The notes under the pieces are model-generated. The model saw only the letters and a list, made by a program, of their open reading frames with translations, made no database searches and was not told where the DNA came from. DNA of 11,596 bases, from assembly GCF_020969955.1 (NCBI RefSeq), contig NZ_JAHDSX010000061.1, positions 1 to 11,596 on the forward strand, read 5' to 3'. Position 1 is the stretch's first letter; each line of letters opens with the position of its first letter. The translations under genes were made by a program, and so were the position numbers. Positions 1-11,457 of this stretch are shown one piece after another. This DNA is from Allobaculum fili. Lineage in GTDB: Bacteria; Bacillota_I; Bacilli_A; Erysipelotrichales; Erysipelotrichaceae.

Positions 1-2
1 TC

Positions 3-39
3 AGGATGATTTTTTCAACAGGTAGAAAATCATCCTTTT
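3..39 (+). terminator. Stem-loop at the window edge; possible intrinsic terminator of a + strand gene lying upstream of the window
   Basis: Perfect 11-bp stem AGGATGATTTT (3-13) / AAAATCATCCT (26-36) with a 12-nt loop. The tail TTTC is short, so terminator function is uncertain. Confidence 0.3.
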
Positions 40-161
40 CGTCATGCCTGAGACGCAAAATATAAGAAATAACAACGCTCATGAACAGGGTATACGATTT
101 TTATCCCTCCTTAACTTAATGACATTGTAATTTTCCTTTCAAAAATGGCTATAGTGTACTG

Positions 162-631: not shown

Positions 632-1183
632 TTATTTCTCTTGCTTTTTGAACTCGACTGTTTTGCTGCTGTCCGCAAGGTCGAGCTCCAGGATCAGTCT
701 GCCGTCAGTATCTTCATCCGAGGCCTCATGGTAAAAGGAAGTGATTTCCCCCGCAGGGGATCCATCTTTCCTCTGCAATACGCAGGTATCCAGGAAAAAC
801 TCCGTAGACTGGACGATTCCCGGCTGAAGATAGACAAATTGAATAGGATCATCCAGCTATTGCTCGCCATCCAGTAAAAGCTTGATGCGGCAGCCGCTGT
901 CCAGCTCTATGACATAATGCCCGTCCTCACTTGACCAAGTGCCTGAAATCACCTGAAGCAGCATCTCATTATCGGCGTATGTATGATCGCCATCCAGTAT
1001 CGTAGGAGTCTCTGAACCATCTATCGTAGGAGTCTCTGAACCATCCACAGTGTCCGGATTCATCGAGCCGCCATTTTCCATGATCCGTTCAGCAGCAAAA
1101 TAACGAAACAGACGAACTCCGGTCACTCCCAGAACTGTCAGCGCAGGCAGCGCAATCAAGAATACGCTTCGAATCTGTTTCAT
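632..1183 (-). pseudogene. N-terminally anchored secreted/surface protein gene interrupted by an in-frame TAG at 857-859 (uninterrupted 5' ORF is 857..1183)
   Basis: ATG at 1183 sits directly after AAAGGAGGGGGG. N-terminal hydrophobic anchor IRSVFLIALPALTVLGVTGV. After TAG 857-859 the same frame stays open for 74 more codons (LDDPIQFVYLQPGIVQSTEFFLDTCVLQRKDGSPAGEITSFYHEASDEDTDGRLILELDLADSSKTVEFKKQEK) to TAA 632-634. That extension contains no Met, so it is absent from the ORF track. Confidence 0.6.
998..1045. repeat. Perfect 24-bp tandem duplication inside the secreted-protein gene
   Basis: tatcgtaggagtctctgaaccatc occurs at 998-1021 and again at 1022-1045. On the - strand it encodes DGSETPTI twice in frame. 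Confidence 0.95.
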
Positions 1184-1414
1184 CCCCCCTCCTTTCTCCT
1201 GATGAGGATTCCTGCTGCAGAGCAAGTTCGGCCTGAGCTGCGGCAAGAAAAAGCCGGCACGTGTTCCGCTTGCCTCTCAGGGCCTTCTCGTTTTCGACAG
1301 AATACGGATATTTATTTTCCTTACAGATTGATACTGTGGCCATTGTAATGAGTTATTTTCGATCGCGCCCTGTCCTTAAGTACAGGTTCGGACACTTTTT
1401 TCAGAAAAATTTTC

Positions 1415-1445
1415 AAAAAAAATCCCGGCTCTAAAGAAAGCCAGG
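1415..1445 (-). terminator. Intrinsic terminator downstream of the response-regulator gene
   Basis: - strand CCUGGCU (1445-1439) / AGCCGGG (1430-1424) forms a 7-bp stem (one G-U) with an 8-nt loop. It is followed by A then U8 (complement of the A run 1415-1422). It lies 21 nt after the TAA at 1466-1468. Confidence 0.75.
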
Positions 1446-1465
1446 ATAGACAGAACAGGTTCTTG

Positions 1466-2118
1466 TTATTCGGTTGTGGAAAATGTCTGTTCCTCGGGGA
1501 GGTTTGGAACGATAAAATTCTTCTTTGTTACCGCGATGGCAAGCTGGGTTCTATTCGTAAATCCGGTTTTGGACAAAATGTTGGAAACATGGTATTTGAT
1601 GGTTCTTTCCGAAACATTCTGCCGGGCGGCGATCTCATAGTTTTCCAATCCGTCACAGATCAGCCGCAGTACCTCGATCTCCTTTGACGTCAGCTCCGTA
1701 CTTTCGACCAATCCCAATTTTCCTTCGGCGTTTCGCCCGGAAAAAGATGTTCGCCCGCCATGGTCCGGTCGATCACGTCGATCAGTGCTTCCGGACTGAT
1801 GTCCTTATACCAGAAGCTGTCCACTCCGGCCGCTTTTGCACGTTTCAGGTAGCTCACCTCAACCATGGATGTGACGATGACGATCCGGATGTCCGGAAAC
1901 TTCGCCTTGGTCTCGGCGGCAGCTTCAATGCCGTCTTTACACCCTGAAGTACAGACATCCATCAAAATCAGGTCAATGTGCTGCTGACCGCATTTCAAAA
2001 GAGCCATATCCGCTCCGTTGAGACTGGCGGCCAGCTCCTATCTGCAGCTGTCGGAAAGCACCCGCTCCATGTATTCACGGGGCATCCGCTGATCCTCTAC
2101 AATCAGAACCTGTTTCAT
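1466..2118 (-). pseudogene. LuxR/NarL-family response regulator (receiver + HTH), disrupted by an in-frame TAG and a 1-nt frame disruption
   Basis: Three ORF-track pieces join into one gene. The first is MKQVLIVEDQRMPREYMERVLSDSCR (ATG 2118, overlapping the kinase stop as ATGA). Then TAG at 2038-2040. Then ELAASLNGADMALLKCGQQHIDLILMDVCTSG...IVIVTSMVEVSYLKRAKAAGVDSFWYK (receiver). Then a frame change at the T4 run 1718-1721. The last piece is the LuxR-type HTH TSKEIEVLRLICDGLENYEIAARQNVSERTIKYHVSNILSKTG. TAA stop at 1466. Confidence 0.85.
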
Positions 2119-3404
2119 TTCATACTCTCCTTTGTCCCCGGGAAAACCACGGTCAGCACAAAGACCGGTTTCGACTGTATTTCCATCGTACCGCCGCAGT
2201 CCAGAATATGGCGATACAGGTTGAAAAGTCCGTCCTTGGGAACGATCTCCGTTTCGGGCGATCTTCCGTCGTTTGTGATCTGCATGGAAATGCTGCCGCC
2301 GGTTTTCTCCACCGTTATATACAGTGCTGTTGATCCGACATGGCGCACGCTGTTTGTCAGACATTCCCGCATGGCGAGGATCATCACACCGCGAAGCTTC
2401 TCCTGCTCAGGCAATTCTCCGGATAAGTTTACTTGGATACCGATGGTCCTGGCATCCTGCAGGAATCTGTCCAGCTCGCTGTGCCCCTGCGAATAGTCAT
2501 TATCGTATTTAATAGCGCTGACCGCACGGGAGAACAGCTCAATGGCATTTGCCGCTTCCTCCGTCTGGTTGTGGTTAAGAATGTGGCGTATGGCAATCAG
2601 TCCCGCTCCCCTATCGTCATGCAGCTTCGTCTTGGCGGCGAGCACTTCCTTTTCTCTTGTCAGGATTAAAGCATTGTCAGAAAGCCATTTCAATTCGAGC
2701 GAAATGGCTTTCAGCCGTTTAATCTGCGCTTTCAGCTCAAGATTTTTATGGTACAGCTCCGTGACATCCGAAAAGATAGCTTCCGTATACAAGGTGCCGT
2801 CCGACGCTTTCACTTCAGTCTTCCGGTAACGCCAGGCTTTGCCGTCGGGAAAAAGACAAGTCTGCCTCTGGGGAGAGAGCTGGATCACCCCGCTGCACGC
2901 GTTGCAGTCTGACAGCGCATCCTGCAGTTCCGCAACCGTCTGGAGATCACTCTGTGAGATCGTGCGGAACAGAGTATCCATTTGCCGGTTGCACAGTTTC
3001 ACACTCCCGGAGGGCGTAAAATAGCAGATGCCGCTTGGCAGCATATCCAGAGCCTGCTTGACGGAATCGCGGCTGAGCGTCTGCTTTCCCAGTCTGTGCA
3101 GCTTTGCCATATCCCATATCAGCAGAAGATCTGCCGCTAATGTGATGCCCCATAAAAGCCACATAGGCAGAGGCAGCCATGTCCTGTACGCCAGTCCTTT
3201 GGTCATCTTTGAAAAAGCATCCGCCAGCCCGGACAATACGATAAGAACGAGCACAAATATGGATAGATGCATAATATTATTCCGCTTGTCGCGCAGTTTA
3301 CCGTAAGCAGCCAGCATCACGAAAAGGGACAGGATCAGGGTAAGGAACAAGGCAACCAGCAGCGGCGTTTGTGCCGGAGTTGAAGAAAAATAAAAATTCC
3401 TCAT
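2115..3404 (-). CDS. Membrane-bound sensor histidine kinase, HisKA_3 (NarX/DegS-like) type
   Basis: Intact 429-aa ORF with three N-terminal hydrophobic segments. H-box-like KLHDDRGAGLIAIRHIL, N-box ECLTNSVRHVGS, ITNDG, and G-box GLFNLYRHILDCGGTMEI. The TGA stop overlaps the regulator ATG (ATGA at 2115-2118). Confidence 0.85.
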   Translation of the reverse strand: MRNFYFSSTPAQTPLLVALFLTLILSLFVMLAAYGKLRDKRNNIMHLSIFVLVLIVLSGLADAFSKMTKGLAYRTWLPLPMWLLWGITLAADLLLIWDMAKLHRLGKQTLSRDSVKQALDMLPSGICYFTPSGSVKLCNRQMDTLFRTISQSDLQTVAELQDALSDCNACSGVIQLSPQRQTCLFPDGKAWRYRKTEVKASDGTLYTEAIFSDVTELYHKNLELKAQIKRLKAISLELKWLSDNALILTREKEVLAAKTKLHDDRGAGLIAIRHILNHNQTEEAANAIELFSRAVSAIKYDNDYSQGHSELDRFLQDARTIGIQVNLSGELPEQEKLRGVMILAMRECLTNSVRHVGSTALYITVEKTGGSISMQITNDGRSPETEIVPKDGLFNLYRHILDCGGTMEIQSKPVFVLTVVFPGTKESMK

Positions 3405-3442
3405 GCCGGTTCACCCGCCTTTCCGATCCGAAGGGAAAAGCG

Positions 3443-5036
3443 CTATACGCCTTCCTCACAGGTGCACGTATCGGCAAGAACAGACAGCTCCGACAAATCG
3501 CCTTTGCTTTCCGCATGCAGATAAAAGACGATCGCATCTTCCAGACTGCGGGCTTTCAGCCAGACCAAACGAAGGTCATCCATGGCCGCTTCCGTCACGG
3601 CTTCAAAAAAGTCATAGACACGGATTGCATCCTGGGTATAAATGCGGTTTTTGCCCGGAATATCCATGGCACATTCCACACTCATCAGTTCCAGATTGGC
3701 AAGGGATTCCTCCAGACAGGCGGACAGCTCAGCGGTATCCGTTACGCTCGATCTTTCACCGATAAACATCAGATTGCCCCGGCGTTTTATGTACGCGCCG
3801 ATCACCGCCGCTTTTGCCAGCAGACTGCGGCGAATTTCCGGATTGTCTTCCGCTTCATTTTGTGTCAGCAGCTGATCGAGCAGCTCGATCTGATGCACTG
3901 TGTGTGCCTGCAGCCGGTCATAGAGCCGGCTCTTTTCCCGAACTGCATTGATCTTTACCTTGGTTTTATAGTTTTGCTGCTCCACATCATCGCTTTCCGA
4001 AATCCTTTGCCGGTTTTCCTCCAGCTTTTCCAGCAGAGCAGTAATGTCTGTGATATCTTCCTGCCACAAAACATGACCGCCATTGATCCTGCAGCTTCTG
4101 AGCAGCGTGTTGCGATCCAGCATGGTCGCGTCCTTTTGTGCCGAGCGTATCACATCCGCCGTCAGCATCGGTGCGTTTGAAGAGGCATAACGGGTATGCA
4201 AGTCCGTGTCTACGATCTGCGCTCCTATGGAGCCGGCTTCAAGCAGCGATTTGTACCCGGTATTGGTCTGAATCAGCCCGCTCTGAATACAGCTTTCCAA
4301 TATTCCGGTAAACATCAGGCACTGGGCTGCCGTGATGTCTCCGCCGATCAGCCGCATCCATTTTGCGCCGCTGATATATCAGGGCATATGCGATCGAGCA
4401 TGTTAACAGCAAGAACGGAAGATATTTTTTCCTTTGGGAGAGTCGGCACTTGATCAGCATGATGACAAATGCCGCCAAAGCACAAAATATCTCCCATCCG
4501 AGAACGATATAATACCCGAATCTATATCCATTGTTTTCGCCCGTCCATGCCTCTCCTTCCGGGAAGGAAAAGGCAAGCTGATGGAAATCATTTGTAAGCT
4601 CAAAAAGCAGACAGAGCACCGTAGGAACAGCTAATAACAGGAGCGTCGTTTTCGATAACTTTGCATTTGCGGGCTTCCCCAGTGGGAGGGCAACAAGCAA
4701 AGAAAACAGCGGAATAAACAGCATGGGCAGGTAGTACCAGTCCCACAGTTGCCGTGCTGTTCCGATATCGGTTATGAAATAGTATTTCATTGAACGGAGA
4801 ATAAACCAGAAAACCATTAAACCTGAAACAGCAATCAGATAATGGCGCACCTCTACCTGAATGATCCGTTTGCTGACGGAAATTTCCCATCCGATATAAA
4901 GAGCGATATAAATAAGCGAGCGGACAATTCCACTGGGAACGCCCAATATGCCAAGATTTCCCAGAACGCGTAAGAAAACAGCAGAGAAGATCATCGCGTC
5001 TACAAGAAGACCTGTTTTGTGATTCTGTTTCGTCAT
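3443..5036 (-). pseudogene. 7-TM sensor-like membrane protein (resembles histidine-kinase N-terminal 7TM family) with a coiled-coil/DHp-like cytoplasmic domain; frame disrupted near 4361-4364
   Basis: ATG 5036 follows GAAAGGAGG. Seven hydrophobic helices lie between MTKQNHKTGLLVDAMIF and CSIAYALIY. ORF track pieces 4239..5294 and 3443..4357 overlap by 119 nt in different frames. Removing one base of the A4 run (T4 on + strand, 4361-4364) gives ...ALIYQRRKWMRLIGGDITAAQCLMF..., a typical positive patch after a TM helix. The gene ends at TAG 3443-3445. Confidence 0.75.
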
Positions 5037-5245
5037 GAGGAACCTCCTTTCTAATTCATCTTGTTTTATTATTCGGGCAAGGTACAGGTAACGTTTTCCC
5101 GAAGAACCGAGGCAGCCATATTTTTGATTTAGCCAGACTGGGACTGACCCGTCAGGAGCAGCTGAACATCGCCATCTCGCCTGTCCGCTCGTATGAATGA
5201 AAAAGTCTGCACAGTCATACGCCGTACGGTTATTTCTGCTTTCTG

Positions 5246-5282
5246 AAAAAAAAGAACCCCGAACTATACAGTCCAAGGTTCT
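5246..5282 (-). terminator. Intrinsic terminator between lysS and the signalling cluster
   Basis: - strand AGAACCUUGGAC / GUUCGGGGUUCU forms a long stem with several G-U pairs and loop UGUAUA. It is followed by U8 (complement of the A run 5246-5253). Confidence 0.7.
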
Positions 5283-11349: not shown

Positions 11350-11457
11350 GTCTGGCAGCTTCCTATCTTTGCCTTGCGGCTATTGTCGGCGTTCTGCAGC
11401 TTAACGGCTGTGTGCGAGATGGGAACAGGTGTATCCTGCAGGCTATCGCCACCATAC
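11350..11457 (-). rRNA. rrf: 5S ribosomal RNA (compact, about 108 nt)
   Basis: The reverse complement reads GTATGGTGGCGATAGCCTGCAGGATACACCTGTTCCCATCTCGCACACAGCCGTTAAGCTGCAGAACGCCGACAATAGCCGCAAGGCAAAGATAGGAAGCTGCCAGAC. It matches bacterial 5S blocks (GGTGGCGATAGC, GTTCCCAT, GTTAAGC, GCCGA, TAGGA). The 5' and 3' ends pair as helix I. Ends are approximate, within a few nt. Confidence 0.85.

Follow-up and report, generated by a model that had tools for sequence, protein, structure and literature searches.

Among the signalling genes carried by conjugative elements of gut Firmicutes are two-component systems of the NarL/LuxR type that include an extra protein with a HisKA_7TM domain; their genes follow the order seven-transmembrane (7TM) protein, kinase, regulator, and overlap by ATGA in intact copies. 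A copy of this kind occupies positions 632-5036 of an 11,596-nucleotide (nt) stretch of Allobaculum fili DNA (contig NZ_JAHDSX010000061.1 of assembly GCF_020969955.1), which is called the window here in its full length. The regulator of the window likewise joins a receiver to a GerE domain, and its kinase displays a weak HATPase_c match. Unlike the described systems, the window copy has two of its three core genes broken and its accessory genes deleted, and is presumably non-functional as a system.

Three TAG codons lie in frame within this cluster, and beyond each of them the reading frame continues, which the first-pass annotation of the window took to indicate either recoding or read-through on the one hand, or a decaying locus on the other. 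Known forms of stop-codon reassignment or suppression include the pyrrolysine UAG, amber suppressor tRNAs and UAG-recoded phages, and the window is like these in that its TAGs are followed by open, homologous frames. It is unlike them in that the TAGs stand for no consistent amino acid, vary among strains and are confined to one decaying island, and also in that tRNA-CUA was not found in the sampled sequence and the sister species, A. mucilyticum, terminates genes with TAG. The locus is much closer to pseudogenised horizontally acquired cargo, sharing with it nonsense and frameshift lesions at sites that are sense in orthologues, strain-specific lesions, a raised ratio of nonsynonymous to synonymous change (N/S), internal deletions relative to a donor-type element, and intact flanking housekeeping genes, with no essential difference. 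Of the two earlier suggestions the decaying locus is upheld, and recoding is not supported, given the sense codons at these sites and the accompanying frameshifts, with tRNA-CUA, prfA and stop-codon usage of this species sampled from partial sequence.

It appears nearly certain that each of the three TAGs arose by an ordinary nonsense mutation of a single base, within a signalling island that was acquired horizontally and is now decaying, and that no altered genetic code is involved. The region would be the remnant of an acquired four-gene module for a 545-amino acid (aa) 7TM sensor-like protein, a 429-aa kinase, a 217-aa regulator and a 175-aa secreted protein, a module that in this Allobaculum species would be free of selection. 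The changes TTG to TAG, TAT to TAG and TGG to TAG would then be independent and recent events in genes that were already dispensable; TAG would be read as a stop, and these lesions would be accompanied by a 2-nt and a 1-nt deletion. The frames would stay open past each TAG because the mutations are young, and the shared identity of the three stops would be due to chance, aided by TAG being the stop most easily reached from these codons. Loss of function, the order of events and the direction of transfer are what we infer from comparison of the sequences, which itself shows the ancestral codons, the polymorphism in the species, the indels, the further lesions of other strains and the raised N/S ratio.

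Ancestral codons at the three TAG sites

All coordinates are those of the window, in which the named genes of the cluster are on the minus strand throughout, and the contigs and records compared with it are labelled L001-L102. These include the public complete-genome record CP078088.1 (L001/L070), a metagenome contig with an intact module (L007/L008), A. mucilyticum (L009-L011), and conspecific strains of 97-99.8% nt identity that were gathered via locus look-ups (L002-L006, L068, L071-L075 and L100-L102). DNA alignments with A. mucilyticum (93% nt identity) and with L007/L008 (86%) place a sense codon of the intact orthologues at each of the TAG sites: Leu (TTG/TTA) at 857, Tyr (TAT) at 2038 and Trp (TGG) at 3443, each of these source codons being a single substitution away from TAG. 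In the orthologues the corresponding open reading frames (ORFs) are uninterrupted at 175, 217 and 545 aa.

Translation bears out the first-pass description of the surroundings of each site. In the small secreted protein gene, 74 open codons separate TAG 857-859 from the terminal TAA 632-634, and in a protein alignment of 14 homologues this TAG falls on an invariant Leu, which L007, L075 and L100-L102 encode by TTG and A. mucilyticum by TTA; the homologues span the entire read-through translation, and gene callers end the protein at 108 aa. TAG 2038-2040 is codon 27 of the regulator and lies inside its receiver domain (Pfam Response_reg, E=3.6e-15), at a position that is TAT in L005, L006, L068, L072, A. 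mucilyticum and L007. The regulator retains Pfam Response_reg and GerE matches in two separate frames, together with NCBIfam matches of the NarL/MadR-like kind, and is intact at 217 aa in L006, L068, L072 and L007.

The third site, TAG 3443-3445 in the 7TM gene, falls on a Trp that is invariant in the homologue alignment and is encoded by TGG in L075, L100-L102, L009 and L007. The 13 codons beyond it (RFSLRIGKAGEPA) are the natural C-terminus kept in homologues, and they lead, as first described, to a TGA sharing bases with the start codon of the kinase (ATG 3402-3404). With its frame restored, the 7TM protein matches more than 100 clusters of homologues, which are 544-545 aa long and 80-81% identical to it; some carry the names Acutalibacteraceae or Candidatus Apopatosoma, both Clostridia. 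Beyond Pfam HisKA_7TM, searches with the 545-aa protein gave no NCBIfam or PDB sequence match.

Lesions among strains and relaxed constraint

The lesions of the cluster follow the pattern expected of pseudogenes, with premature stops and frameshifts at places where intact orthologues are in frame and sense. All three TAGs are polymorphic among the conspecific strains. The two frame disruptions were initially both described as 1-nt events, which is correct for the regulator, where a single T is missing at 1722/1723 that is retained in L006, L068, L072, L073, L009 and L007; the 7TM gene, in contrast, is missing 2 nt at about 4374-4380, where L009 reads TATGTCAGC, L007 reads TATGCCAGC and the window reads TAT--CAGC. 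This 2-nt deletion is common to every sampled strain of the species and is probably the oldest lesion. Since L075 and L100 combine the deletion with TGG, the frame of the gene would have been shifted before TAG 3443-3445 arose.

Other strains add lesions of their own. The kinase, whose ORF is unbroken in the window, shows a 46-nt deletion, a 17-nt insertion or a TGG to TGA change elsewhere; the 7TM gene has a further TAT to TAG change at codon 217, a 1-nt insertion and a 1-nt deletion; and the small protein gene has a 1-nt deletion. Counting both of those in the window, seven frameshifting indels are found within the species (deletions of 2, 1, 46, 1 and 1 nt and insertions of 1 and 17 nt), in addition to in-frame changes of 15, 21 and 24 nt. 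The 24-nt duplication at 1022-1045 is not present in L006, L068, L072, L073, L075, L009 or L007. Altogether the species shows 12 or more disruptive events, differing lesions being found in differing strains, and none of the sampled strains has all four cluster genes intact. The neighbouring lysS, tsaC and mnmE are unbroken in all Illumina assemblies. A. mucilyticum has its own lesions in the island: its small protein gene carries an insertion of 4 nt, the kinase has a TAC to TAA change in one strain, and another strain has lost 1 nt.

The lesions have apparently been reassorted as well. Strains exist with each of the four possible pairings of TAG or TAT at 2038 with a deleted or retained T at 1722, which indicates homologous recombination among strains or else recurrent mutation. 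At kinase site 2332 tandem insertions are found, of 15 nt in L005, L006 and L072 and of 17 nt in L100 and L102, and the site looks like a local duplication hot spot. L010, which is placed with the A. mucilyticum loci, is a mosaic whose first ~500 nt (window ~4862-4350) are of the window type including the 2-nt deletion, and which is from there on 100% of the A. mucilyticum type; this would reflect either recombination between species within the island or a chimera of metagenome assembly.

When single-step codon changes are assigned to branches with L007 as the outgroup, nonsynonymous and synonymous changes number 39:32 on the window branch vs 21:44 on the A. mucilyticum branch (odds ratio 2.55, Fisher p = 0.01), and the raised N/S ratio on the window branch is consistent with relaxed constraint.

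TAG as a terminator and the competing explanations

The first-pass annotation considered it somewhat unlikely that three random nonsense mutations should all be TAG. This is a weak argument: of the single-nucleotide routes by which codons of the intact orthologues become a stop, 40-53% lead to TAG (the range reflecting transition bias), and the probability that three of three are TAG is 0.07-0.15. The further observation that the remaining terminators in and around the window are all TAA or TGA holds, as does the absence of tRNA genes from the window, which was confirmed by search. Whether TAG is a common ordinary terminator, as decay of the locus would have it, can be answered in the affirmative for the sister species, this genome having been sampled locally. 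In 1.17 Mb of A. mucilyticum strain 128, drawn from 56 insertion sequence (IS) loci, TAA terminates 234, TGA 198 and TAG 92 (17.6%) of the 524 unique ORFs that reach 200 aa or more, and the RpoC gene is among those terminated by TAG.

An ordinary use of TAG is also seen in contigs that probably belong to A. fili (L085-L097; RpoC group P0192/P0194). An ABC-ATPase gene (L085 4333-5010) ends in TAG in seven of them and has TAA at that codon in four, the kind of interchange that a plain stop function of TAG predicts. The TAA stop of this gene is also found in L083/L084 (RpoC P0196), linked differences just downstream accompany the two forms of the stop, and several Allobaculum RpoC lineages exist at about 91% identity.

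Reassignment of TAG, or its efficient suppression by e.g. pyrrolysine or an amber suppressor tRNA, would have the three genes translated through, and would account for the premature stops of the window all being TAG, for the homology of the frames that continue past them, and for the zero TAG terminators in ~19 local genes. It is nevertheless very unlikely, since the TAGs stand for three different amino acids, with no consistent one, at sites where conspecific strains keep sense codons, and since they are strain-polymorphic and not fixed, while lysS, mnmE, tsaC and the other intact genes contain no in-frame TAG. Moreover, two of the three TAG-bearing genes are frameshifted too, and read-through would therefore not rescue them. 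The use of TAG for 17.6% of long-ORF ends in the sister species, and the TAA/TAG stop polymorphism in the probable A. fili contigs, argue in the same sense. A suppressor is likewise missing from what was searched: no tRNA-CUA occurs in ~27 kb around the window or in ~16 kb of contigs probably of the same species, and none of the 32 tRNAs in the 1.17-Mb A. mucilyticum sample has a CUA, UUA or UCA anticodon. A normal tRNA-Tyr (GUA) lies near the locus. Neither prfA nor prfB was found in the A. mucilyticum sample by tblastn with an approximate E. coli RF1 (release factor 1) query.

The first-pass annotation had also favoured pseudogenisation or sequence error on account of the frame disruptions. 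Pseudogenisation is upheld by the polymorphic lesions and the sense codons of orthologues, whereas errors in a single genome record are an almost negligible prospect as the source of the stops and frameshifts. Such errors do exist in CP078088.1, which has 21 single-base deletions and zero mismatches relative to the window and to the Illumina contigs, and in which mnmE, tsaC, the kinase and further genes are split into fragments. The record is of the same strain as the window, and its deletions look like uncorrected long-read indel errors. The lesions of the cluster, on the other hand, are present in at least 10 independent Illumina metagenome assemblies; the whole set of three TAGs and two frame breaks is represented among L002-L005 and L071-L074, which come from different samples, and that identical errors should make the same TAG substitutions in many assemblies is implausible. 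Sequencing error is ruled out as the cause of the lesions by the independent assemblies that carry them.

A functional role of the interruptions, through programmed read-through or frameshifting or through reversible phase variation that switches the module, would be in keeping with the strain polymorphism of the lesions, with the position of the 2-nt deletion within an (AT)n-like tract and of the 1-nt deletion beside an A run, and with the gain at kinase site 2332 of 15- and 17-nt tandem insertions in different strains. The chance of this is very small, given that the stops are not conserved in orthologues, as programmed recoding requires, that the tracts are short (ATATAT, AAAA), and that every sampled strain has the 2-nt deletion and none has the complete module restored. 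Phase variation in particular was rejected in view of the short repeat tracts and of several lesions that are irreversible, such as the 46-nt and 21-nt deletions and the loss of four neighbouring genes.

Several points weigh against simple decay. The kinase ORF is intact in this strain, so that some residual function is possible. Four of the five nonsense events in the cluster within the species are TAG (P = 0.09-0.23), although this excess is within chance expectation and not remarkable. None of the ~19 neighbouring genes in ~27 kb of this species ends in TAG, most of them ending in TAA, for which the probability is about 0.03-0.05 at a TAG usage of 17.6%; this local lack, a mild anomaly, could be due to chance, to local bias or to a lower TAG usage in the species. 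Finally, the tRNA-CUA and prfA evidence for this species is drawn from partial sequence. A leaky UAG termination, whether through weakening of RF1 or through amber suppression by a tRNA, under which TAG alleles preferentially persist and TAG is depleted among true terminators, would accommodate some of these points and is very improbable. Ordinary nonsense mutation in a decaying island is retained as the explanation of the three TAGs.

Origin and surroundings of the island

The intact module of L007 consists of 545-, 429- and 217-aa genes with ATGA overlaps and adjoins relaxase, MobC/NikA, ArdC, YodL and related genes, a neighbourhood that, judged by its gene content, is the mark of a conjugative element. 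Between the regulator and the gene of the 175-aa protein L007 has four extra genes, which are missing from the window cluster. The window island is 86% identical to the L007 module in nucleotide sequence. Identity between A. fili and A. mucilyticum is 93% for the island vs 82.5% for lysS (both nt), 75% for MnmE and 63% for TsaC (both protein), and in A. mucilyticum the island lies at another chromosomal site, between MFS and MBOAT genes. Because of this excess of identity, the differing sites, the conjugation-gene context in L007 and the Clostridia names among homologues of its 545-aa protein, the island is, from its sequence, foreign and recently shared, and it presumably came from an element resembling the L007 module. 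The features of the cluster and its surroundings are collected in Table 1.

Table 1. Position of the island genes, their lesions and adjoining features in the window
Feature	Coordinates	Strand	Remarks
Small secreted protein pseudogene	632..1183	-	weak PA14-like match; intact homologues 174-175 aa
NarL/LuxR-type response regulator pseudogene (receiver + GerE helix-turn-helix (HTH))	1466..2118	-	intact form 217 aa
Histidine kinase, 429 aa	2115..3404	-	ORF unbroken in this strain, TGA end; weak HATPase_c match (Pfam)
Pseudogene of 545-aa protein	3401..5036	-	N-terminal HisKA_7TM domain (Pfam)
Nonsense TAG, small secreted protein	857..859	-	codon 109 here, codon 101 of 175-aa orthologue; from Leu TTG
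Nonsense TAG, regulator	2038..2040	-	codon 27; from Tyr TAT
Nonsense TAG, 7TM gene	3443..3445	-	codon 532 of 545; from Trp TGG
1-nt (T) deletion, regulator	1722..1723	-	between receiver and HTH domains; frame shift
2-nt deletion, 7TM gene	4374..4380	-	frame shift
24-nt in-frame tandem duplication	1022..1045	-	DGSETPTI twice; polymorphic among strains
158-bp repeat	5094..5251		island edge
IS element end	1..127		DDE_Tnp_1 transposase
5S rRNA gene	11350-11456	-	Rfam RF00001, 63 bits

Two inverted repeats of 158 bp with 90% identity, one at the edge of the island in the window and the other at L002 12861-13018, ~1.2 kb past the window start, flank a segment of ~6.2 kb that is homologous to the L007 module; the homology with L007 and L009 stops on the inner flank of each repeat. 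No such repeat was found in L007, in L009 or in the 1.17-Mb A. mucilyticum sample. The repeats could represent the termini of a non-autonomous mobile unit or a duplication of the insertion site. The IS that ends in the window (~1.65 kb, L001 16781-18425) has a 9-bp target duplication and is strain-specific, there being no copy in L002-L006. Its transposase is 100% identical in A. mucilyticum strain 128, where more than 55 copies exist, and the IS is a large expansion common to both Allobaculum species. The neighbours of the cluster, by Pfam, are lysS, tsaC (Sua5/YrdC family) and mnmE. The 5S rRNA gene, the sole match of an Rfam search of the window, is the edge of an rRNA operon, at which point metagenome contigs break.

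The result is mainly a negative one, in that an apparent signal of stop recoding is routine gene decay, and the window is no candidate for a change in the genetic code. For the public record CP078088.1 it means that indel errors fragment real genes. For Allobaculum it provides a strain-resolved view of a transferred two-component module that is eroding through many independent lesions in a gut commensal.

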